This document shows positions 5,809-45,977 of a DNA stretch of 45,977 nt, in pieces. The stretch is taken from positions 1 to 45,977 of the IMG/VR virus record IMGVR_UViG_3300045988_043313; one strand, written 5' to 3'. The notes beneath the pieces are model-generated. The model was given only the letters and a program-made list of their open reading frames with translations, searched no databases and was not told the origin of the DNA. This DNA comes from a virus. Position 1 is the stretch's first letter. Every line of letters starts with the position of its first letter. Position numbers and translations under genes: made by a program.

Positions 5809-6642
5809 ATGGCTAATTATGGCGTGCCGTATAAGGGCAGTAAAAATAAAATTGCAAAGCAAATTATTGATTTCTTACCTTCCGGCGGTACGTTATATGA
5901 TTTATTCGCAGGCGGTTGCGCAATCACACATTGCGCTATGGAATCTGGAAAATATGACAGGTATATCGTTAATGATATTGAACCAGGAATTACTCAACTT
6001 TTCATTGATGCAGTTAACGGGAAATATGCAAATGAAAAAAGATGGATTAGCCGAGAAGATTTTTTTAAATTAAAAGAATCAGATCCATATGTAAAATATT
6101 GTTGGAGTTTTGGAAACAATGGACGCGATTATCTTTATTCAAAAGCAATAGAACCATTAAAAAAACATCTTCACAATATATTTTTTGCAGAAAATTTGCA
6201 GGAAGCAAGGCTTGAATGGAAAGCGTTTATTAGAGATTTTTGCACAAGCAAACAAAGTCTGCAAAGTCTGCAAAGTTTGCAAAGTCTGCAAAGTTTGGAA
6301 AGGCTGCAAAGTTTGCAAAGTCTGCAAAGTTTGGAAAGGCTGGAAAGGCTTTGTACGGACTACGGAAATATAAGAATAGAGTCAGATGCTGTAATTTACT
6401 GTGATATTCCATATAAAAATACAAACAGATATGGAGATGAAAAAGCAGAATTTGACTATAACTCTTTTTATGACTGGGCTTGTTCACAGAACGTTCCTGT
6501 ATTTATATCGGAGTACGATATGCCAGAAGATAGATTTGAATGCGTACTTGAAATGAAAAAGCAATCTTGCATGGCTGCTACAAAAACGCTTTCAGTAACT
6601 GAGAAATTATATATTCCTAGGAAGAAAGGAAAGATAAAATGA
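5809..6642 (+). CDS. DNA N6-adenine methyltransferase (Dam-like, D12 class)
   Basis: N-terminal YKGSKNK, SAM motif DLFAGG, and catalytic DIPY (a DPPY variant) near residue 200. AT-rich compared with its neighbours. Confidence 0.8.
   Translation: MANYGVPYKGSKNKIAKQIIDFLPSGGTLYDLFAGGCAITHCAMESGKYDRYIVNDIEPGITQLFIDAVNGKYANEKRWISREDFFKLKESDPYVKYCWSFGNNGRDYLYSKAIEPLKKHLHNIFFAENLQEARLEWKAFIRDFCTSKQSLQSLQSLQSLQSLERLQSLQSLQSLERLERLCTDYGNIRIESDAVIYCDIPYKNTNRYGDEKAEFDYNSFYDWACSQNVPVFISEYDMPEDRFECVLEMKKQSCMAATKTLSVTEKLYIPRKKGKIK
6253..6351 (+). repeat. In-frame 9-bp tandem repeat tract (11 units) inside the methyltransferase gene
   Basis: Units are CAAAGTCTG/CAAAGTTTG (QSL) and GAAAGGCTG (ERL). They are in frame with the CDS and lie between the SAM motif and DIPY. 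Confidence 0.95.
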
Positions 6643-10100: not shown

Positions 10101-12812
10101 ATGGCTGCTGATGGCTCAGTCATTATTGATACCAGATTAGACACAACCGGTGTCCAAAAAGGTGTATCAGCGATTAAGCAGTCTTTTGATGGGCTAGGGA
10201 GCGCAGTAAAAAAAATAGGACTACTTATCGGCGGAGTATTTGCTGTTGGTAAGTTAGTACAGTTTGGAAAAGAGTGCGTGGAACTTGGCTCTGACCTCGC
10301 AGAAGTGCAAAACGTGGTTGATGTTACATTTACAACCATGTCGGATAAGGTCAATGAATTTGCAAAAAATGCTATGACCTCAGCCGGATTATCTGAAACT
10401 ATGGCAAAAAGGTATGTCGGCACGTTCGGAGCAATGTCTAAGTCGTTCGGATTCTCAGAAGCACAAGCTTACGATATGTCAACAGCTCTGACACAGCTGA
10501 CTGGTGATGTGGCATCATTCTACAACATCAGTCAGGACTTGGCTTATATCAAACTGAAATCAGTGTTTACGGGTGAAACGGAAACATTAAAAGATTTGGG
10601 CGTGGTAATGACCCAGTCGGCACTTGACCAATATGCACTTGCTAATGGATATGGCAAGACCACATCGGCAATGACTGAACAGGAGAAAGTTGCCCTCCGC
10701 TTTGCTTTTGTGCAGGAACAGTTATCAGCCGCATCTGGTGACTTCATTCGTACTTCTGACAGCTGGGCGAACCAGGTGCGAGTGATGCAGTTGCAGTTGC
10801 AGTCCCTCAAGGCAACAGTCGGACAGGGGCTGATTAATATTTTTACACCTGTTCTGAAAGTAATCAATATTCTTCTCGGTAAACTGGCGACTCTGGCAAA
10901 CGCATTTAAGTCATTCACGGAGCTTATTACTGGCAAGAAATCTTCCGGTCAAACGAGCGGAAGTGGAGCGGGCCTTGCCGGAACAGACGCGATCGCAGAT
11001 ACAGCGGACCAGTATGGACAGGCGGCAGATAATGCAAAGAAACTGGCGGATGCCACTAACGACAATGCAAAAGCAACAAAAAAAGCGAATAAGGAAACAA
11101 AAAACTATCTTTCGTCACTTGATGAAGTTCACAAAGTCACATCTACTGGCAGCAATTCATCTTCCACACCATCTTCATCTGGTGGAAGTGGTGGAGCAGG
11201 TAACAGTGGCCTTCCGAGTTCAGTTGGTAATGTGGACTACGGCAATCTTGCAGAGGGTGAAACTGCACTTGACAAGATTAGCGATTCTGCAAAGAAACTT
11301 GCTGATCTGCTCAAGAAGCTCTGGAAGCCATTTCAGGACGCATGGAAAAAAGAGGGCAAGAATACCATCAACGCGGCAAACATTGCTTTGTCGGGAATTG
11401 CAAAGCTCGCTAAGAGTGTAGGCAAAAGCCTTGTTGAAGTCTGGACAAACGGCACAGGCACAACGATGCTCACAACCATGCTGAGGATCGCTCAGAACGT
11501 GCTTAAAACTATCGGGAATATTGCATCCGGTTTTGCCGATGCTTGGAATAAGAACAACGTCGGGACACAGATTATACAGAACATTGCAGATGCTCTTGTG
11601 GTAGTCATGCAGTTCGTTGAAAGAATTGCAGAGGATACAGCGACATGGGCGGCAAACCTTAATTTCTATCCGCTGTTGGAATCTATCAGTAATCTGACAA
11701 GTACATTTGCACCAATTCTGGAATCCATCGGAAATGTTCTTGAATGGATCTATAACAATATCGTTCTCCCGATGCTGAAATGGCTGATTGAAACAGGAAT
11801 TCCGACAGTGATTAACCTAGTGTCTGATTTGGCTGGATTCTTTGCGGATCATCAATCAATTATTGAAGCATTCGGTGCAGCTCTAATCGGAGCGTTCGCG
11901 GCGGCGAAAATTGCAGGGCTAGCATCAAGAATATCAGGAAGTATAACGACAGTAGCGAGTTTTATAAAAGGCCTTATTGCACTTATGACTGGTTCTAGTG
12001 GCATTATGGGAGGAATTAAAGCTATTGCAACGGCTATCGGACCGGGTGGAATTTTTATAGCAGCAATAACGGCTTGCATTGCGATTGGTGTATTACTGTA
12101 CAAAAACTGGGACAAAATTAAAGAAGTTGCAGGTGCGGTATGGAGTTGGATTAAAGACAAAACCATAGCTTTCGTCGATGGAATAAAATCAAAATTAAGT
12201 AATTTGGCAGAAAAGATTGTTTCTATCTGGAATGGAATAAAATCAAGTGCAAAAGAAAAGTGGAGTGCTATATGGTCCACTATAAAAGAAGTTGTAAAGA
12301 GGATAGTTGATGGAATCGTTGATAAATTCAAAGGTGCAAGAGACAAGGTTGTTGATACGTTCGAGGGAATTAAAAACAAAGTCAAAGAAATATTCAATAA
12401 AGTTATCGGTATCGTAAATGGTGCAATTGGTACGGTGAACGGTGCAATCAGTGGAATTGAATCCGCGTTTTCTTTCGGACCGTGGGAAGTGCCTACTCCA
12501 TTTGGTAAGAAAACAATAGGATTCAGTGCTACATTTCCGCGAGTTCCAACTATTCCATATCTTGCAAAAGGTGCTGTTATTCCTCCAAGATCAGAATTTC
12601 TCGCTGTGTTAGGAGATCAGAAGCAAGGAAACAACATCGAGACACCAGAAGCACTGCTCAGAAAAATCGTGCGTGAGGAATCAGGTCAGCAGAGTGGTGG
12701 TGATTACAGATTCACAGCTCAGATTAATAGACGGACTATTTTTGACGAAATTATAGACGAAGCAAAATTAAGACGCAGCACAAGCGGAAGAAATCCGTTT
12801 GAACTGGCATAG
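10101..12812 (+). CDS. Tail tape measure protein
   Basis: 903 aa, helical and Ala/Gly-rich, with hydrophobic central segments. It is the longest helical gene in the tail module. Confidence 0.9.
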   Translation: MAADGSVIIDTRLDTTGVQKGVSAIKQSFDGLGSAVKKIGLLIGGVFAVGKLVQFGKECVELGSDLAEVQNVVDVTFTTMSDKVNEFAKNAMTSAGLSETMAKRYVGTFGAMSKSFGFSEAQAYDMSTALTQLTGDVASFYNISQDLAYIKLKSVFTGETETLKDLGVVMTQSALDQYALANGYGKTTSAMTEQEKVALRFAFVQEQLSAASGDFIRTSDSWANQVRVMQLQLQSLKATVGQGLINIFTPVLKVINILLGKLATLANAFKSFTELITGKKSSGQTSGSGAGLAGTDAIADTADQYGQAADNAKKLADATNDNAKATKKANKETKNYLSSLDEVHKVTSTGSNSSSTPSSSGGSGGAGNSGLPSSVGNVDYGNLAEGETALDKISDSAKKLADLLKKLWKPFQDAWKKEGKNTINAANIALSGIAKLAKSVGKSLVEVWTNGTGTTMLTTMLRIAQNVLKTIGNIASGFADAWNKNNVGTQIIQNIADALVVVMQFVERIAEDTATWAANLNFYPLLESISNLTSTFAPILESIGNVLEWIYNNIVLPMLKWLIETGIPTVINLVSDLAGFFADHQSIIEAFGAALIGAFAAAKIAGLASRISGSITTVASFIKGLIALMTGSSGIMGGIKAIATAIGPGGIFIAAITACIAIGVLLYKNWDKIKEVAGAVWSWIKDKTIAFVDGIKSKLSNLAEKIVSIWNGIKSSAKEKWSAIWSTIKEVVKRIVDGIVDKFKGARDKVVDTFEGIKNKVKEIFNKVIGIVNGAIGTVNGAISGIESAFSFGPWEVPTPFGKKTIGFSATFPRVPTIPYLAKGAVIPPRSEFLAVLGDQKQGNNIETPEALLRKIVREESGQQSGGDYRFTAQINRRTIFDEIIDEAKLRRSTSGRNPFELA

Positions 12813-19309: not shown

Positions 19310-20419
19310 CTATTTTTCAGCACTTTCTTTTTTTGTGTTGCATTCCGTGTTGCATAGCTTTGAAAAATAATCATTCCCAATTTCATTCATCTCTTTTTCT
19401 CGATCAACCAGAACGTGCCGATATACATTTTTTAATGTGGTATCATCCTCCCAACCGCCGCGCTGCATAATATATACATCTGGAATTCCAAGAGTATGCA
19501 ACTCAGATGCGCAATAATGACGCAAATCATGGAATCGAAAATGATGAATCTGATTGTCATCTAACAGATCTGAAAATCTGTCGGATATTTGCGATGGGTT
19601 CAAATTTGTTATTTTCCCATGTATTCCTTTTAATTTATCTGCAACAAAATCTGGATATGAAATGAATCTGTCACCAGCAAAAGATTTTGGTCTTTTGATA
19701 ACCCAACCATGAGAATCATTCATAACCATAGCATATTCGACATGTACTATGTTCTGCTTGATATGATCAGAATTAAGCGCACAGATTTCTGACCGCCTCA
19801 TCGGACCGAACGCTGCCAGAAGAACAGGTATCTCTAATTCACTACCTACAGTACATTCAATTACCTTTTTGACTTCGGCAGATGTAGGTACATAGATTTT
19901 CGGTCTTACCTTTTTAGGTAAGGAAGTTCTTAAGATGAAATCCGAACGATAAGTCTTCAAGACAGTAGAAAGAAAGCCATGCATATTGTACACAGTTTTT
20001 GGCGAATGAGTAAGTGCTTCACGATTCATTTCAGCTTGAACATCCTCTTGAGTGATTTCCATTATATTTAATGACATAAGTTTAGCCATGTCTCTTTTGA
20101 CAGATCGCTTATATTCTCTAATAGTTCCAGGGGATAAAACACCTGTTCTGCTTTCTATGTATTTATTACATGCCTCTTTTAATGTCATATCTTCTGGTGG
20201 AACATATCGCGCAGTCAATACTTCACTTTCTTTTTTTGCTGCCCATTCGGCAGCCATTTGCTCACAGATTCGCTTCCCTTTTTTGCTAGGATCTGAACAT
20301 GTAAAAGATTTATAAACCCTTTTCTTTTTGATAGTCCCGTCTGATAACGGGATTTCTTCGATGTGACTGAATACCTGACATCTCCATGAGCCAGATGGCA
20401 GTTTTTTTGCAGTTGCCAT
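19310..20419 (-). CDS. int: Tyrosine recombinase (phage integrase)
   Basis: The C-terminal catalytic region HDLRHYCASE...GGW...YRHV gives the R-H-R-Y signature. N-terminus is KLPSGSWRCQV type. Adjacent to the attP core. Confidence 0.92.
   Translation of the reverse strand: MATAKKLPSGSWRCQVFSHIEEIPLSDGTIKKKRVYKSFTCSDPSKKGKRICEQMAAEWAAKKESEVLTARYVPPEDMTLKEACNKYIESRTGVLSPGTIREYKRSVKRDMAKLMSLNIMEITQEDVQAEMNREALTHSPKTVYNMHGFLSTVLKTYRSDFILRTSLPKKVRPKIYVPTSAEVKKVIECTVGSELEIPVLLAAFGPMRRSEICALNSDHIKQNIVHVEYAMVMNDSHGWVIKRPKSFAGDRFISYPDFVADKLKGIHGKITNLNPSQISDRFSDLLDDNQIHHFRFHDLRHYCASELHTLGIPDVYIMQRGGWEDDTTLKNVYRHVLVDREKEMNEIGNDYFSKLCNTECNTKKESAEK
19334..19357. repeat. Doubled (T/C)GTGTTGCAT motif, candidate arm-type site (P' arm), inside the integrase 3' end
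   Basis: TGTGTTGCATTCCGTGTTGCATAG encodes CNTECNT at the integrase C-terminus. It is a direct repeat of 19118-19141. Confidence 0.5.
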
Positions 20420-20554
20420 TTCTTTTCCTCCTTATTAACCGAACAAACTTTCTGACTTGTCCGAACACACCGAAGATGATACAATATGACTTGTCAGGCG
20501 ATACGTTTCACTTCGTTATGCTTTGCGGAACGTAAAAATATTTTTCTTTTTTTT

Positions 20555-20594
20555 AAAAACCGGTTCCCGTTGGTAGCAGGAGCCGGTTCTTTTT
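20555..20594 (-). terminator. Terminator downstream of the response-regulator/SHOCT operon
   Basis: 10-bp stem AACCGGTTCC/GGAGCCGGTT (one G.U pair), 11-nt loop, flanked by A/T runs. Confidence 0.7.
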
Positions 20595-21471
20595 ATAAAA
20601 GTTCTGATTTTTTCTGGTCAAATTCTTCTTGAGTAATAATACCGCTATCTAAAAGCTCTTTGTAATCCTTCAGTAGTTCAACGGATGTTTTCTGATTTCG
20701 AACATTTTCAACAGCATCAGAGCTTTTGGAAATATTGAAACTCTTTAACTGCATATCTATATTTGAACTACAGCGGAATCCAATAGTATTTATTTGATTG
20801 GTTTCGATATTCCGCATTTTCATAGATGCATAAGAATCCACTTCAATGTTATCACTTGTTGTGGTAGCAGTTCCAGTAGTAGTGGAATTATTCTTTCCTT
20901 TGGTTTTCTTTCCAGTTCCAACAGCTGCACCGACTATAGTTCCAACTCCCGGAGCAATAGCGGTTCCAACAACGGCTCCTGCTAAATGCCCTCTTCGTTT
21001 CGTTTTTTCTTTACTTTTCCCTTTAGTGTGAGATGTTGTAGTTGTCTTTTCTACTGTTCTGTATTCCGGCCCGTTCCATTCATAGTCGAAAAGTTCATAT
21101 TTGGTTGGAGCATCTGACACTGTAACAGACCCATCTTTCCATTGCTTCAAATCAAATCTTGCGTGTTTGGAACCAAGCTCAAAATCCTCCTTACCGGATA
21201 TAACTCTCAGATTCAATACTCGAACAGGTTTTTCTACAACCGCTGGCTGGGTTGCTACGGAATTATTTGATATTGCAGGTTTTTGAACCTTATTTTTAAT
21301 AGACAGCAAAAGTGCAAAAATAAGATACAAAACAGCAATTCCAAATGTCTCAAGTACAACAACGACCATAATATTGTCCGATGAAAGATCGTTTGAACTC
21401 ATCAAAGCCACAATCATCAGCACAATGAATGCAGTCCAAATAATCATCAACACATTTCGTATCTTTTTCAT
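20593..21471 (-). CDS. Membrane protein with glycine-zipper segment and C-terminal SHOCT domain
   Basis: The likely start is the 7th codon of the ORF (AAGGGGG RBS upstream). Two N-terminal TM helices. GAVVGTAIAPGVGTIVGAAVGTG glycine zipper. The C-terminus ELLKDYKELLDSGIITQEEFDQKKSELL matches the SHOCT motif. Confidence 0.75.
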   Translation of the reverse strand: MKKIRNVLMIIWTAFIVLMIVALMSSNDLSSDNIMVVVVLETFGIAVLYLIFALLLSIKNKVQKPAISNNSVATQPAVVEKPVRVLNLRVISGKEDFELGSKHARFDLKQWKDGSVTVSDAPTKYELFDYEWNGPEYRTVEKTTTTSHTKGKSKEKTKRRGHLAGAVVGTAIAPGVGTIVGAAVGTGKKTKGKNNSTTTGTATTTSDNIEVDSYASMKMRNIETNQINTIGFRCSSNIDMQLKSFNISKSSDAVENVRNQKTSVELLKDYKELLDSGIITQEEFDQKKSELL

Positions 21472-21491
21472 AGTTTCCCCCTTTGACACGA

Positions 21492-22196
21492 TTACTCAAA
21501 ATTTTCGATATAATTCTTATATAGATTCCTTATTTTTGCAGCCTCCCTCTGCCTGATCGGAACGATATCCCCTGATATCATTTCGAAATGATCTGACGCA
21601 TCTTTGATTTCATCCATGTTTACGATGTAGCTCTGATGACAACGGAGAAATCTTCCGTCAAGGCGAGGCTCTATATCTGACAGCTTTCCACGTACTACAT
21701 GTATGATACCGCAGGTACAGTGGACAAGAATTGATTTATTTCGGCTTTCTATGTATTCGATGTGACGGAATTCTACCCGATGGAAGTGATCTCGGTTTTT
21801 GATAGTCAAGGCTTTCTCACGGATATCTTCCAATGTGTGTGCTACGACAGAATACATGCGTCCATGCTCAGAGCCTTTGATGATGTAATGCACTGGCAAG
21901 ACGTCCAATGCGTCAAATACATAGTTTTTGTATGCTGTCCAGAAGGCAATGTTGCCATTATATCCATTTTTCCTGAGCTGTCTTGCAACATTTATGCCAT
22001 TCTCATTATCAAGGACCACATCCAACACGACTATATCGTACCATTGACCGTCTGCTATATCATCAATCAGCGGCTTTCCACTACTATAAGTGTTTAGCGT
22101 GTAACTCTTGTCTCCGCGCTTTTTCAAAAACTCATCAATATGAGCCTTAAAAAAATCAATCTGTAAAGAATTATCGTCACAAATCGCAATTTTCAT
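21492..22196 (-). CDS. LytTR-family response regulator (receiver + LytTR DNA-binding domain), orphan
   Basis: The receiver has the acidic pair CDDN, a phospho-acceptor candidate in IVVLDVVLD, and downstream T and K residues. The C-terminal half (FRHIEYIESRNKSILVHC...FLRCHQSYIVNMDEI) is LytTR-like. No histidine kinase gene is present in the genome. Confidence 0.85.
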   Translation of the reverse strand: MKIAICDDNSLQIDFFKAHIDEFLKKRGDKSYTLNTYSSGKPLIDDIADGQWYDIVVLDVVLDNENGINVARQLRKNGYNGNIAFWTAYKNYVFDALDVLPVHYIIKGSEHGRMYSVVAHTLEDIREKALTIKNRDHFHRVEFRHIEYIESRNKSILVHCTCGIIHVVRGKLSDIEPRLDGRFLRCHQSYIVNMDEIKDASDHFEMISGDIVPIRQREAAKIRNLYKNYIENFE

Positions 22197-22250
22197 GCAA
22201 ATCAGTCCTTTAAATTGTCATTTTCGCCATTTGCGTTAAATAAGAATTCT

Positions 22251-22298
22251 ATATGTTATAGTTGATTATAGCATCATGCAATATAGTTGTAAATAGAC
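22251..22298. promoter_or_regulatory. Cluster of phased (T/A)TATAG motifs in the divergent intergenic region
   Basis: TTATAG at 22256 and 22266, ATATAG at 22281, AAATAG at 22291 (spacings 10, 15, 10 bp). TATAGTTG occurs twice (22257, 22282). The cluster lies between the regulator operon and CDS 22318. Confidence 0.35.
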
Positions 22299-22317: not shown

Positions 22318-22650
22318 ATGAAAAGAGTCAAAAAAGTACTAATTTTGATATCGGTTATAGTTTTTGTCAATTATATAATCCATCTTCCAATGTGCGTGGA
22401 TGATTATGTACACAAGGATTCTGACATATACTCTGCTCAACACATGTGCAGGCATTCGACCTTGACCAGGAACGCGAAGGGAATTTTGAAAACAGACGGT
22501 ATTATAGAAACAATAAAAATTCCACTCAAAGCGAACTTCCTTTTTGCAAAAGTAAAAATTATATTCGATATTACGAATGTTCCGGTCTATCATTGGCAAC
22601 TAGCGAGGGGTGATTTGTCCGCCGATGCCACTTTATCGTACCAAAGATAA
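22318..22650 (+). CDS. Hypothetical secreted/membrane-anchored protein (lysogeny-side moron)
   Basis: AGGTGA RBS, N-terminal hydrophobic anchor KKVLILISVIVFVNYII, AT-rich. Confidence 0.55.
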   Translation: MKRVKKVLILISVIVFVNYIIHLPMCVDDYVHKDSDIYSAQHMCRHSTLTRNAKGILKTDGIIETIKIPLKANFLFAKVKIIFDITNVPVYHWQLARGDLSADATLSYQR

Positions 22651-22697: not shown

Positions 22698-22814
22698 ATG
22701 GATTACAAGAAAGAAATTATTGAAATGATAGAGAATACTGAAAATGAGGGCAAATTAAAATTTGTCTATACAATTCTTATTAAATATCTAAAATCAAAGA
22801 AGCAAGGGGATTAA
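22698..22814 (+). CDS. Small hypothetical protein (38 aa)
   Basis: Strong AGGAGG 6 nt before the ATG. Not in the ORF track (<60 aa). Its end lies in the hairpin GCAAGGGGATTAACCCTTGC shared with the convergent repressor gene. Confidence 0.45.
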   Translation: MDYKKEIIEMIENTENEGKLKFVYTILIKYLKSKKQGD

Positions 22815-23155
22815 CCCTTGCTCCTTTTGTTTAGTGATGAAACTATTTGTTTTATTGCTTTCTTATCTTCTTTATCGAGTGCTTTGTATTCCTCGATAAA
22901 ATCTAAGATGTCAGGTTCCGACATAAGATTTCCAATTATGGTTGCATAATCGTCATCGCTTTTAGAACCCATGAGGTATGTTGGTGTTACTTCCAGAACA
23001 CCGCATAGAAGTTCAATAGTGTCCATATCTGGCTTACACTTATCTTTTTCCCAGTCACTAATTGAATTGTGCTTTGCATTGATTTTTTCTGCAAGTTGTT
23101 TCTGGGTCAGCTTCTTTGCCGTTCTGGCTTGTTTGATTTTCTCACCAAATGTCAT
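22811..23155 (-). CDS. CI-like repressor (XRE-family HTH)
   Basis: N-terminal HTH_3 pattern GEKIKQARTAKKLTQKQLAEKINAKHNSISDWE. Divergent from a Cro-like gene. Confidence 0.85.
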   Translation of the reverse strand: MTFGEKIKQARTAKKLTQKQLAEKINAKHNSISDWEKDKCKPDMDTIELLCGVLEVTPTYLMGSKSDDDYATIIGNLMSEPDILDFIEEYKALDKEDKKAIKQIVSSLNKRSKG

Positions 23156-23190
23156 TATCGTTTCCTCCCTTCATAGCTAATAATAATATA

Positions 23191-23269
23191 GAAATTTCGA
23201 ACTGTCAATAAAATAATTTCGATTTACTCGAAATTTCTTCTTGACATTCGAGTAATTCGAAGTTATACT
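23191..23269. promoter_or_regulatory. Immunity switch: operators and early rightward promoter
   Basis: Perfect inverted repeat AATTTCGA-N5-TCGAAATT at 23215-23235, with further TTCGA half-sites at 23195, 23247 and 23256. TTGACA (23241-23246), a 17-nt spacer, then TATACT (23264-23269). Confidence 0.7.
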
Positions 23270-31223: not shown

Positions 31224-32942
31224 ATGAAATTTATAGATTTTTTCGCAGGAATCGGAGGATTTCGTAGGGGAATGGAATTGGCAGGGCATGAATGCGTTGG
31301 TTTTTGCGAATTTGATAAATTTGCTACTGCGAGTTACATCTCAATGCACTTGCTGACAGACGAGCAGCGAAAGGCATTGGAAGATATTCCTATCAAGAAA
31401 AGACAGAAGGAAATATTAAAGGAGGAATACAGAAATGGAGAATGGTACGCAAATGACATTAGAAGAGTGTATGCCGGAGACATTCCAAAAGCCGACTGCT
31501 GGTGCTTTGGATTCCCTTGTCAGGACATATCCATTGCAGGAAAGCAAGTCGGATTTCAAGGAAACCGTTCAAGCCTGTTTTTCAGAGTTATGTACCTTAT
31601 CGGACAGCTCAAAGAAGAAGATAAACCCACTTACCTTTTCATTGAGAACGTTAAAAATCTGCTTAGTGTTAATGGAGGATGGGATTTCGCCAGACTGCTC
31701 ATTGAAATGGATAGGGCAGGGTATGATGCAGAATGGCAAGTGCTCAACTCCAAAGATTTTGGAGTGCCACAAAACCGGGAAAGATGTTTTATTATCGGAC
31801 ATCTTAGAAGCAGAAGTACCGCAAAAATATTTCCTGTCGAAAGAGCAGACAGAGAAAATAGTATTCAAATAATTGGACACAGGAACGGATATAAAAGAAA
31901 TACGCAGGTATTCGTACAAGATGGAATTACAGAAGCATTAAGCACCTGTCAAGGCGAAGAAAGGGGACACCACACTGCCTTACCATGTTTCATAGATTTA
32001 TGTTACCAGGGATCGCAAATGACGGACACTGCAAGATGCTTAAAAGCAAGATACTACAAAGGCGTAGCGAACCACGCCGGACAGGATAGTGGAATTGCAA
32101 TAAAAGTCATAGGAGAAGTTAATTCGTCACAAGATGGGAAAGTGCTTGGAATTGATGGAATCGCAAAATGCCATTCGGCAGGACATAACAACAATCCGAA
32201 GATAGCACTTCCGGTTCTGACACCGGATCGAGTAGAAAAGCGTCAGAATGGGAGAAGATTCAAAGACAATGGCGAGCCAATGTTTACACTTACAAGAGCA
32301 GATATACATGGCGTAGCGATTGAACCTACTGGATTTAATTGTATGCCAGATGGAACATGCAGAACATTGAAAAATCAATACCAGAAAAACAGTGGAGTAA
32401 ATTTCGCTTGCCAAACAGACAGAGGTGCTACGGCTGTTGCTGTTAAGTTCAAAAACATTACAGCAAGCACAATCAGGAAAGTTGCTCCTAGAAATAAAGT
32501 TTCGATACTTAGAGGACAATCGCAAGAAAATAATTTAGATATTTGCGTAAAGGTAGCAGAAGCAACAAAACAAGGATATTCAGAGTGCAGAGTTGGTGTC
32601 GATGCTGTGAATTTATCAGTTCGAGGTAGTAAGACAAGAAGAGGAAGAGTTGGGAAAGAGATTGCAAACACACTAGACACAAGCTGCAATCAAGGGATAT
32701 TTGTTCAAGTGTCGGAAGAATTGGTTGTATATGCAGTCTGGTATGAAAAATATCAGTGTTACATAGCAATCCGGAAGCTGACACCGAAAGAATGTTTTCG
32801 GCTGCAAGGTTGGTCGGATGATTATTTTAAAAAGGCTCAGTTTGTTAATTCTGACAGCCAGTTATACAAACAGGCAGGAAACGGCGTAACAGTGACAGTT
32901 ATAGAAGCTATAGCAAGGAAAATGAACGTAAATCTAAATTGA
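31224..32942 (+). CDS. DNA (cytosine-5) methyltransferase with oversized variable region (probably multispecific)
   Basis: Motif I FFAGIGG, IV GFPCQDIS, VI ENVKNL, VIII QNRERCFIIG, IX LTPKECFRLQGW, X AGNGVTV. About 325 aa lie between motifs VIII and IX. Confidence 0.9.
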   Translation: MKFIDFFAGIGGFRRGMELAGHECVGFCEFDKFATASYISMHLLTDEQRKALEDIPIKKRQKEILKEEYRNGEWYANDIRRVYAGDIPKADCWCFGFPCQDISIAGKQVGFQGNRSSLFFRVMYLIGQLKEEDKPTYLFIENVKNLLSVNGGWDFARLLIEMDRAGYDAEWQVLNSKDFGVPQNRERCFIIGHLRSRSTAKIFPVERADRENSIQIIGHRNGYKRNTQVFVQDGITEALSTCQGEERGHHTALPCFIDLCYQGSQMTDTARCLKARYYKGVANHAGQDSGIAIKVIGEVNSSQDGKVLGIDGIAKCHSAGHNNNPKIALPVLTPDRVEKRQNGRRFKDNGEPMFTLTRADIHGVAIEPTGFNCMPDGTCRTLKNQYQKNSGVNFACQTDRGATAVAVKFKNITASTIRKVAPRNKVSILRGQSQENNLDICVKVAEATKQGYSECRVGVDAVNLSVRGSKTRRGRVGKEIANTLDTSCNQGIFVQVSEELVVYAVWYEKYQCYIAIRKLTPKECFRLQGWSDDYFKKAQFVNSDSQLYKQAGNGVTVTVIEAIARKMNVNLN

Positions 32943-45658: not shown

Positions 45659-45859
45659 ATGAAATTATATGTGTTCACGAAAAAAGATATAGACAGGTTC
45701 TTGATAGAGTGCAATTTCACACCGGACGAAGAAAGACTGTTCCGGTTGAGATGCCAGGAACGCACTCTCGAATACTGTGCTGAGCAGATGAATGTGAGCA
45801 TATCAACAGCAAAGCGGTTAAGCCGGAGGGTAAATAATAAAATAATCAAAGTGTGCTGA
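45659..45859 (+). CDS. Small sigma-70 region-4-like HTH protein
   Basis: LTPDEERLFRLRCQERTLEYCAEQMNVSISTAKRLSRRV resembles a region-4/LuxR-type HTH. AAGGGG RBS 8 nt before ATG 45659. Confidence 0.5.
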   Translation: MKLYVFTKKDIDRFLIECNFTPDEERLFRLRCQERTLEYCAEQMNVSISTAKRLSRRVNNKIIKVC

Positions 45860-45922: not shown

Positions 45923-45977
45923 TATAGTTATAGAAAGTCATAGAGTAAGTTATAGAAAGTCATAGAGTAAGTTATAG
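45923..45977. repeat. Terminal duplication of nt 1-55 (circular-closure overlap)
   Basis: The last 55 nt are identical to the first 55 nt. Because the overlap lies in the 22-bp array, the true repeat copy number is uncertain. Confidence 0.9.

Follow-up and report, generated by a model that had tools for sequence, protein, structure and literature searches.

A putative accessory operon encoding an orphan LytTR response regulator and a SHOCT/glycine-zipper membrane protein in a temperate Blautia siphovirus

The virus record IMGVR_UViG_3300045988_043313 of IMG/VR (positions 1 to 45,977, 45,977 nucleotides) was analyzed in full and is referred to here as the window. On its minus strand, between an integrase and an immunity repressor, it encodes an orphan response regulator, in which a receiver domain precedes a LytTR domain, and a membrane protein with a glycine zipper and a SHOCT tail. 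We give a slightly better than even chance that the 1.6-kb segment holding these two genes is a self-contained accessory ('moron') operon, located between the immunity region and the integrase and composed of two independent morons. Comparison of related loci shows that, as far as sequences can tell, the regulator and SHOCT genes are independent cargo sharing a predicted transcript and not a matched pair. The position behind the regulator can be filled differently: by the SHOCT gene, by a gene for a Zn-ribbon/transmembrane/OB-fold protein, or not at all. An earlier sequence-only reading had described the two genes and proposed that they work together; its observations were confirmed in every particular, while its interpretation is only partly supported.

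21492..22196, minus strand: orphan response regulator of 234 residues, with the receiver at residues 3-116 and LytTR at residues ~136-230
20593..21471, minus strand: membrane protein of 292 residues, with two transmembrane helices at the N-terminus, then a putative PH-like beta domain split by a glycine zipper, and SHOCT at the C-terminus

In the arrangement we propose, a sigma-70-type promoter would be followed by the receiver-LytTR regulator gene, the gene for the PH-like/glycine-zipper/SHOCT membrane protein and an intrinsic terminator. The regulator would be a working phosphorylation-dependent transcription factor. Because the phage has no kinase, its phosphoryl group would come from a host kinase or from a small donor such as acetyl phosphate. 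The best candidate site for the regulator is a box, CAAATGGCGAAAA, in its own leader; by binding there, it would adjust its operon and hence the membrane gene co-transcribed in it. The SHOCT protein would act alone at the cytoplasmic face of the membrane, with its PH-like domain and SHOCT tail facing inward and its glycine-zipper hairpin dipping into the bilayer, and its likely role would be to protect the lysogen through superinfection exclusion or abortive infection.

Independent variation of the regulator and SHOCT genes

Pairing was surveyed at 80 IMG/VR loci, 52 with a regulator at least 95% identical to that of the window and 28 with a regulator of ~72% identity. The SHOCT gene is present at every locus of the first set (52/52) and at none of the second (0/28), where another gene starts 4 nucleotides (nt) after the regulator stop codon. 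This replacement gene encodes a 184-residue protein that combines a Zn-ribbon, a single transmembrane helix and a tRNA_anti-like (PF12869) OB-fold (L102:3253-3807; L190:28414-28959), and which is a second family of interchangeable prophage membrane cargo. The clades with regulators of 65% and 51% identity have no downstream cargo, and a convergent endolysin gene faces the regulator there. SHOCT-family proteins (60%, 55% and 40% identity) are encoded between repressor and integrase in prophages that have no LytTR gene (L009-L018), and two SHOCT paralogues stand in tandem in one prophage of this kind.

Divergence is also discordant within the operon. At locus L062, nucleotide identity to the window is 95.2% for the regulator gene and 99.8% for the SHOCT gene; at L061, the values are 92.6% and 98.4%. 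The two genes therefore recombine independently. In addition, collinear relatives dispense with the regulator. The deposited record MT835739.1 lacks it and has a gene of the 110-residue type divergent to the Zn-ribbon protein gene, followed by a serine integrase; the order of modules at L190 is unchanged apart from the missing regulator. L438 has lost both the regulator and its cargo in a clean deletion that joins the regulator promoter to the A-run after the terminator; the endpoint of the deletion is the A/T run directly after the operon terminator hairpin. The segment thus has the features of a moron, namely a predicted promoter and terminator of its own and presence or absence among collinear relatives (L190, L438).

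These observations bear on an analogy drawn in the sequence-only reading, namely to the LytTR regulatory systems (LRS) of Streptococcus mutans. In HdrRM and BrsRM, a receiver-less regulator is encoded with a downstream membrane protein, and LRS operons carry 9-bp direct repeats with an 11-13 bp spacer located 4-11 bp upstream of the -35 element (PMC6193735). If the phage genes formed a sensory pair of this type, the membrane protein would hold the regulator inactive until an envelope signal freed it to activate transcription. The order of the two genes, LytTR regulator and then membrane protein, is indeed that of HdrRM/BrsRM (PMC6193735), and LRS inhibitors are known for poor sequence conservation. 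A different membrane protein follows after a 4-nt gap in the 72% clade, and we keep this alternative in consideration because two unrelated membrane proteins recur behind the regulator. However, the phage regulator has a complete and conserved receiver, which LRS regulators lack, and no 9-bp direct repeats at 20-23 bp spacing stand upstream of the -35 element: a scan of the 200 bp upstream found none matching at 7 or more of 9 positions at offsets 20-23, against a shuffled mean of 2.8. The pair is also not conserved as a pair, since membrane partners are missing from the 65% and 51% regulator clades, prophages devoid of a LytTR gene encode SHOCT homologues of 40-60% identity, sometimes in tandem, and both genes recombine independently. 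On this evidence the HdrRM/BrsRM analogy is not supported, and we regard an LRS-like pair as quite improbable.

Predicted transcription unit and candidate operator

Signals for a separate transcript were located on both sides of the two genes, which are bracketed in turn by the integrase and repressor genes on the same strand.

22265..22293, minus strand: predicted operon promoter (-35 TTTACA, 17-nt spacer, TGn-TATAAT)
22221..22233, minus strand: leader box CAAATGGCGAAAA, ~33 nt upstream of the regulator ATG; candidate operator
20556..20592, minus strand: intrinsic terminator ending the operon, a hairpin followed by a T-run
22796..22827, no strand assigned: bidirectional terminator hairpin between a small open reading frame (ORF) and the repressor gene, separating the operon from the repressor transcript
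19310..20419, minus strand: tyrosine integrase (Phage_integrase, E 1e-12)
22811..23155, minus strand: XRE-type immunity repressor (HTH_3, E 1.4e-12), with operator-like inverted repeats at 23179-23266

The predicted promoter is of the sigma-70 type, with 11 of 12 consensus positions and an extended -10 element. Its -35 and -10 elements are kept in the clades of at least 95%, 72% and 65% identity, in which the flanks differ. With its own promoter and terminator and a bidirectional terminator toward the repressor, the regulator/SHOCT pair looks like an autonomous transcription unit. The regulator stop codon at 21492-21494 is separated from the SHOCT-gene ATG by 20 nt, in agreement with the earlier placement of this ATG 21 nt downstream of the regulator. 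One predicted promoter, one predicted terminator and this short gap support the predicted co-transcription of the two genes. Their location on the lysogeny strand between integrase and repressor, as previously described, was also verified by locating both flanking genes. The further claim that they are expressed from the prophage stands in part: position in the lysogeny module and the near-consensus promoter favor it, and expression in the lysogen from this strong, constitutive-type promoter is plausible, as far as a promoter sequence can indicate.

The core of the leader box, AAATGGCGAAA, occurs in nearly every regulator leader of at least 65% identity, within surrounding sequence that is otherwise unrelated; one locus, L109, has a single substitution in it. 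The box is retained irrespective of repressor type, and the 65% clade has it in two copies at a 21-bp phase. The leader gave no Rfam match and no significant RNA fold. We infer that the CAAATGGCGAAAA box is a candidate autoregulatory operator of the regulator. No paired 9-10-bp repeats spaced by 12-13 bp were found within 200 bp upstream of the regulator in the window phage.

Two other leads from the leader were discarded. A short ORF beginning at the ATG of the box (ATG GCG AAA...) has no ribosome-binding site in any clade, and its translation is unlikely. A scan of IMG/VR for TGGCGAA-N14-TGGCGAA was uninformative, as the matches listed were mostly unrelated contigs. TGGCGAA alone occurs nine times in the window, mostly within genes.

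The response regulator

By its architecture, the regulator is a LytTR-family two-component response regulator. Pfam places Response_reg at residues 3-116 (E 2.6e-10) and LytTR at residues 138-204 (E 2.8e-14). In an alignment of 25 sequences reaching down to 28% identity, D7, D8, D59, T87 and K107 of the receiver are invariant, as is the LytTR motif F183-x-R185-C-H-x-S189-Y-x-x-N193. The complete receiver, with its acidic pocket, Asp, Thr and Lys, and its fusion to LytTR are therefore as first described. A profile of the regulator family can be aligned over its whole length to ComE (4cbv), and it further matches the LytTR domain of AgrA (3bs1) and the receiver of LytR (6m8o). The scores of the regulator against NCBIfam models reach 40-51 bits, compared with equivalog cut-offs of 375-400, and it matches phrog_8810 with an E-value of 2e-34. 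The gene is under strong constraint, since its ratio of nonsynonymous to synonymous substitution rates (dN/dS) is 0.04-0.07. All regulators of the phage clade have Gly at residue 108, after Lys107 (IIKGSE; window ~21873-21875), in place of the Lys-Pro of cellular relatives.

Other arrangements of these domains were also encountered. P0023 has a receiver N-terminus identical to that of the window regulator joined to a divergent LytTR domain, and this mixed make-up indicates recombination within the regulator gene. P0047 (L309:3567-4037) and P0038 are fusions of an XRE (HTH_3) domain to LytTR, with LytTR domains 55-59% identical to that of the regulator. In L309, from a phage of the 65% clade, the fusion takes the place of the repressor, as though a deletion had removed the receiver domain, the small divergent gene and the C-terminal part of the repressor. 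Each of the two fusions was found on a single contig and may be an assembly artefact.

Absence of a phage kinase and possible phosphorylation by the host

The claim that the genome encodes no histidine kinase withstood three kinds of search. Pfam detected no HATPase domain in any window ORF of at least 200 residues, and three AgrC-type kinase seeds and a kinase profile gave no match at E<=10 among 159 stop-to-stop ORFs of at least 80 residues. AgrB, AgrD and AgrC were likewise not found in searches of the window. Beyond the window, no histidine kinase was found at the 97 phage-clade loci searched. The orphan status of the regulator is compatible with membership of the LytTR family. Pfam scans of ten neighboring genes found an adjacent kinase for only two of the ten closest cellular relatives, and orphan status thus seems common in the subfamily; one distant cellular relative, P0049 (37% identity), is paired with an AgrC-type HATPase_c_5 kinase. 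An iterative kinase profile built for the neighbors of cellular relatives was dropped because it was contaminated by the receiver domains of hybrid kinases.

Phosphorylation of the regulator by a host kinase is a reasonable hypothesis. It can be extended to eavesdropping, in which a host kinase of the AgrC/ComD type would phosphorylate the regulator and the regulator would act on the immunity region, the operon of the divergent gene at 22318 or the integrase. In every context read, the regulator lies beside the repressor module, and its phospho-acceptor residues are invariant. In addition, two distant relatives, P0049 (37%) and the regulator of phage NatCom_29429 (28%), are paired with HATPase_c_5 kinases, a natural HTH_3::LytTR fusion occupies the repressor position in a related phage, and the integrase is preceded by a 10-bp direct repeat with a 12-bp spacer. 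Weighing on the other side, relatives that lack the regulator retain this repeat and the 22318 gene, the repressor-cro region has no LytTR-type repeats beyond the operators of the repressor, and natural variants (L190, L438) dispense with the regulator. No close host paralogue points to a shared kinase specificity. We therefore consider eavesdropping through the host kinase possible but unlikely. The broader proposal, that the prophage reads cell density or membrane status of its host by phosphotransfer from an AgrC/ComD-type or envelope-sensing kinase and adjusts induction, excision or its protective membrane cargo, is likewise possible but unlikely.

Candidate targets of the regulator

The sites and genes examined in the vicinity of the operon are as follows; the last of them is listed for context.

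22318..22650, plus strand: divergent gene for a small protein of 110 residues with an N-terminal membrane anchor
20439..20470, minus strand: direct repeat GTGTGTTCGG-N12-GTTTGTTCGG, a 10-bp repeat with a 12-bp spacer and LytTR-like geometry
22698..22814, plus strand: conserved ORF of 38 residues (MDYKKEIIEMI..., MDYKKEIIEMIEN...), convergent with the repressor gene

The sequence-only reading had named an array of 22-bp repeats as a possible target. It comprises 3.4 perfect copies of AGTTATAGAAAGTCATAGAGTA at positions 1-77 and 45926-45977, between a terminator and the ribosome-binding site of a structural-module gene (90-560) and downstream of a small sigma-like ORF (45659-45859; phrog_1190). 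Its copy number is uncertain, because the 55-nt assembly overlap falls inside the array. In most of ~80 relatives, the homologous junction is the repeat-free sequence AAAAATATAATCAGAAAGGCGGTG...ATG, and this includes contigs that carry the regulator; 1.4 array units are present in one IMG/VR contig, and a few contigs have one to three copies of the 12-bp unit AGTCATAGAATA. To judge by these junctions, the array is a private, hypervariable micro-expansion and not a conserved target, and its nomination as a site for the regulator was abandoned. A motif picked by eye, GTTATAG-N4-TNATAG, has no occurrence outside the array other than one in the regulator promoter region; it was rejected, as the statistic is circular and the promoter-region site is the promoter's own -10 element on the opposite strand.

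The divergent 22318 gene is a possible, though not a dedicated, target. It has a dN/dS of 0.05-0.14, and in three clades the regulator is flanked by a homologue of it (25-100% identity); L190 and L438, both of which lack the regulator, retain the gene. No LytTR-type repeats were found in the repressor-cro region apart from the repressor's own operators.

The direct repeat GTGTGTTCGG...GTTTGTTCGG ends 5 nt before the integrase ribosome-binding site and may regulate the integrase. In 51 IMG/VR contigs it is kept together with the integrase, irrespective of the presence of the regulator. As a site specific for the regulator it was rejected, since it stays with the integrase in L434, L438 and L475, all of which lack the regulator.

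The regulator might instead serve lysogenic conversion, by binding host promoters such as those of bacteriocin or cell-density LytTR regulons, or act as a decoy that drains phosphate from host kinases. The phage offers no convincing paired site beyond the private array, the repressor operators and the integrase-linked repeat. The regulator is also under strong purifying selection though dispensable for phage propagation, a combination typical of lysogen fitness factors. Against this, the binding-site scans, which covered phage sequences, give no evidence for host targets, and the conservation of the leader box speaks for one or more sites on the phage itself. We judge the conversion or decoy role improbable.

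The 38-residue ORF on the repressor side has a strong ribosome-binding site and a terminator common to the repressor gene. It is 41-100% conserved beside unrelated repressors, and phages that lack the regulator (L009, L190) have it too.

The SHOCT/glycine-zipper protein

The program-predicted ORF begins with a GTG at 21489 that has no ribosome-binding site; the real start is the ATG at 21471, which stands behind a strong ribosome-binding site, AAAGGGGGAA. Database proteins that are 100% identical over the 292 residues are also 292 residues long (P0085). The SHOCT domain (PF09851) was detected at residues 273-298 of the ORF (E 3.5e-9), and its motif KELLDxGxITxEEFxxKK is invariant across the family. 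Hydropathy analysis delineates segments at residues 3-29, 32-62 and 163-185, the last of which is the glycine zipper, a Gly-rich hydrophobic segment (LAGAVVGTAIAPGVGTIVGAAVGTG) between KRR and KK clusters. Hydropathy and Pfam analysis thus agree with the original description of a protein with two transmembrane helices, a glycine zipper and a SHOCT tail. The dN/dS of the gene is 0.11-0.21.

The predicted glycine-zipper hairpin (residues ~160-187) interrupts the putative PH-like beta domain. In an AlphaFold2 model (predicted local distance difference test score 69), the protein has two transmembrane helices and 7-8 strands plus a helix. The strands at 84-149 and 198-234 are confident and flank a disordered insert at 150-200; a helix and the SHOCT helices follow. 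Because basic clusters flank the zipper and both of its flanks form the beta domain, the zipper is predicted to be a re-entrant hairpin, with the globular parts of the protein in the cytoplasm. Many members of the family lack the N-terminal transmembrane helices, and the family core would therefore be a cytoplasmic, membrane-dipping unit. The PH-like assignment is consistent with a weak precomputed match of the identical protein P0085 to PF27000 (PH_gly_zipper), which was not recovered in the Pfam scan of the window ORF. Foldseek searches with the model gave only non-significant PH/PTB matches and nothing with E <0.001 against PDB and BFVD. PADLOC returned no match for the protein, and the PHROG families that match it carry no functional annotation.

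Literature searches likewise retrieved no functional study of PH-glycine-zipper-SHOCT proteins. It has been proposed, without experimental support, that SHOCT domains mediate oligomerization (PMC3581485), and anchoring to the inner membrane leaflet has been proposed as well (PMC11237479). Glycine zippers are also found in membrane-depolarizing toxins.

Known superinfection-exclusion systems offer a comparison for this protein. The integrase-proximal, prophage-expressed slot is where siphoviruses of Gram-positive bacteria keep exclusion genes. Lactococcal Sie2009 and Ltp of Streptococcus thermophilus phage TP-J34 are superinfection-exclusion membrane proteins encoded between integrase and repressor. 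The SHOCT protein resembles them in genomic position, predicted prophage expression and membrane association, but has no sequence or fold similarity to either; moreover, Ltp is an extracellular lipoprotein, whereas the globular part of the SHOCT protein is predicted to be cytoplasmic. By this analogy, and with modest confidence, the SHOCT protein likely protects the lysogen by superinfection exclusion or abortive infection.

Interpretation and relation to known systems

Several points weigh against reading the segment as an accessory operon of two independent genes with an autoregulatory regulator and a protective membrane protein. In each of two clades the gene directly after the regulator encodes a membrane protein, the two being unrelated, and this recurrence could mean that they have a functional link to the regulator. 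No target of the regulator was identified. The leader box is single in the window phage, and LytTR dimers usually need two repeats; it is also downstream of the promoter and therefore fits repression and not the positive feedback usual in this family. For expression in the lysogen, the prediction comes only from the promoter consensus. The K107-G sequence of the phage clade, where relatives have the usual K-P, may affect the receiver. Finally, the SHOCT protein lacks homology to characterized exclusion or defense proteins in the PADLOC, PHROG and fold searches.

Like AgrA, ComE and LytR, the phage regulator joins a receiver with an acidic pocket, phospho-acceptor Asp, Thr and Lys to a C-terminal LytTR domain that has the RCHxSxxVN core. 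Unlike them, it is encoded by a phage, has no cognate kinase, peptide-signal genes or AgrB/AgrD, and has Gly instead of Pro after K107. A further counterpart is CdtR of Clostridioides difficile, an orphan receiver-LytTR regulator of the binary-toxin locus for which the phospho-acceptor Asp is important and the kinase unidentified (PMC12482169). Both are orphan receiver-LytTR regulators on an accessory locus in which the phospho-acceptor Asp is conserved. CdtR differs in being chromosomal, in governing known toxin genes and in showing no autoregulation, and the two proteins have no detectable close sequence relationship.

Regulators of this kind are already catalogued in phage databases (phrog_8810) and have never been characterized; literature searches found no functional study of a phage-encoded receiver-LytTR regulator. 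By tblastn, 55 deposited phage records encode receiver-LytTR regulators. Among them, C. difficile phages LIBA2945 and LIBA6276 carry an orphan gene annotated 'two-component response regulator' beside antirepressors, and Ruminococcus phage NatCom_29429 encodes a regulator together with an AgrC-type kinase. The regulators of these three phages are 24-29% identical to that of the window and lie in different genome contexts. The mirror image is found in phiCDHM1, which has agrBDC kinase and signal genes and no regulator. Hargreaves et al. (2014) suggested that phage LytTR genes might 'listen in' (PMC3901668).

If the phage regulator does plug into a host phosphorelay, it would represent a different route of listening, by way of a stolen response regulator. 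Known phage listening to hosts uses ligand-binding receptors, such as VqmA-phi, LuxR-type receptors and arbitrium. The regulator clade is tractable, being abundant in the human gut, strongly constrained and present in sequenced Blautia obeum genomes, and natural variants without the regulator or with swapped cargo can be used as controls. Our analysis also puts right a tempting but mistaken pairing: the SHOCT/glycine-zipper protein belongs to an autonomous, widespread family of prophage cargo. This family merits attention of its own as a candidate exclusion or abortive-infection factor.

Distribution and origin of the regulator clade

A relative of the regulator is encoded by 450 IMG/VR contigs, and the clade is common among Blautia prophages of the human gut. 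P0001, which is 98% identical to the regulator and is assigned by NCBI to Blautia obeum, is recorded on 828 contigs, and the sequenced B. obeum genomes GCA_003464105.1 and GCA_003458635.1 carry the regulator. In eight long contigs P0001 lies within an integrated prophage, where the gene order is repressor, divergent small gene, regulator, SHOCT protein, integrase and host genes. The integrase of these prophages is either a tyrosine integrase or a large serine recombinase, and their repressor and replication modules also vary, as in classical mosaicism. Homologues of 72%, 65% and 51% identity hold the same position in related prophages. All homologues of at least 51% identity whose context was read lie in a prophage lysogeny module beside the repressor module.

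The regulator belongs to an old phage-resident clade and is not a recent copy of a host gene. Blautia fusiformis is the only one of 185,579 GTDB species-representative genomes with a member of the clade. After it, the cellular matches closest to the regulator belong to Oscillospirales and do not exceed 40% identity; B. wexlerae supplies the first cellular regulator of Blautia in that list, at 32% identity. As the nearest cellular regulators are this distant and come from Oscillospirales instead of Blautia, there is no sign of host-regulator mimicry.

The integration site of some variants could also be read. In the serine-recombinase variants L002, L004, L006 and L007 (~11327-12160), the prophage abuts a 72-residue Mn_catalase (CotJC-like) fragment that adjoins cotJB and cotJA. 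This suggests that these variants interrupt the sporulation-coat gene cotJC, in the manner of intervening elements of other spore formers.

Genome context

The window is a circular phage genome, as indicated by the identity of bases 1-55 with bases 45923-45977. It encodes a terminase, scaffold, minor capsid protein, GH25 endolysin, ERF recombinase and primase, together with the tyrosine integrase and the XRE repressor with its cro-like partner. The phage is a temperate siphovirus whose host group is the gut bacterium Blautia. Two DNA methyltransferases are also present, namely a D12-class N6-adenine enzyme in the structural module (5809-6642) and a C5-cytosine enzyme in the early region (31224-32942); both probably protect the phage against restriction.

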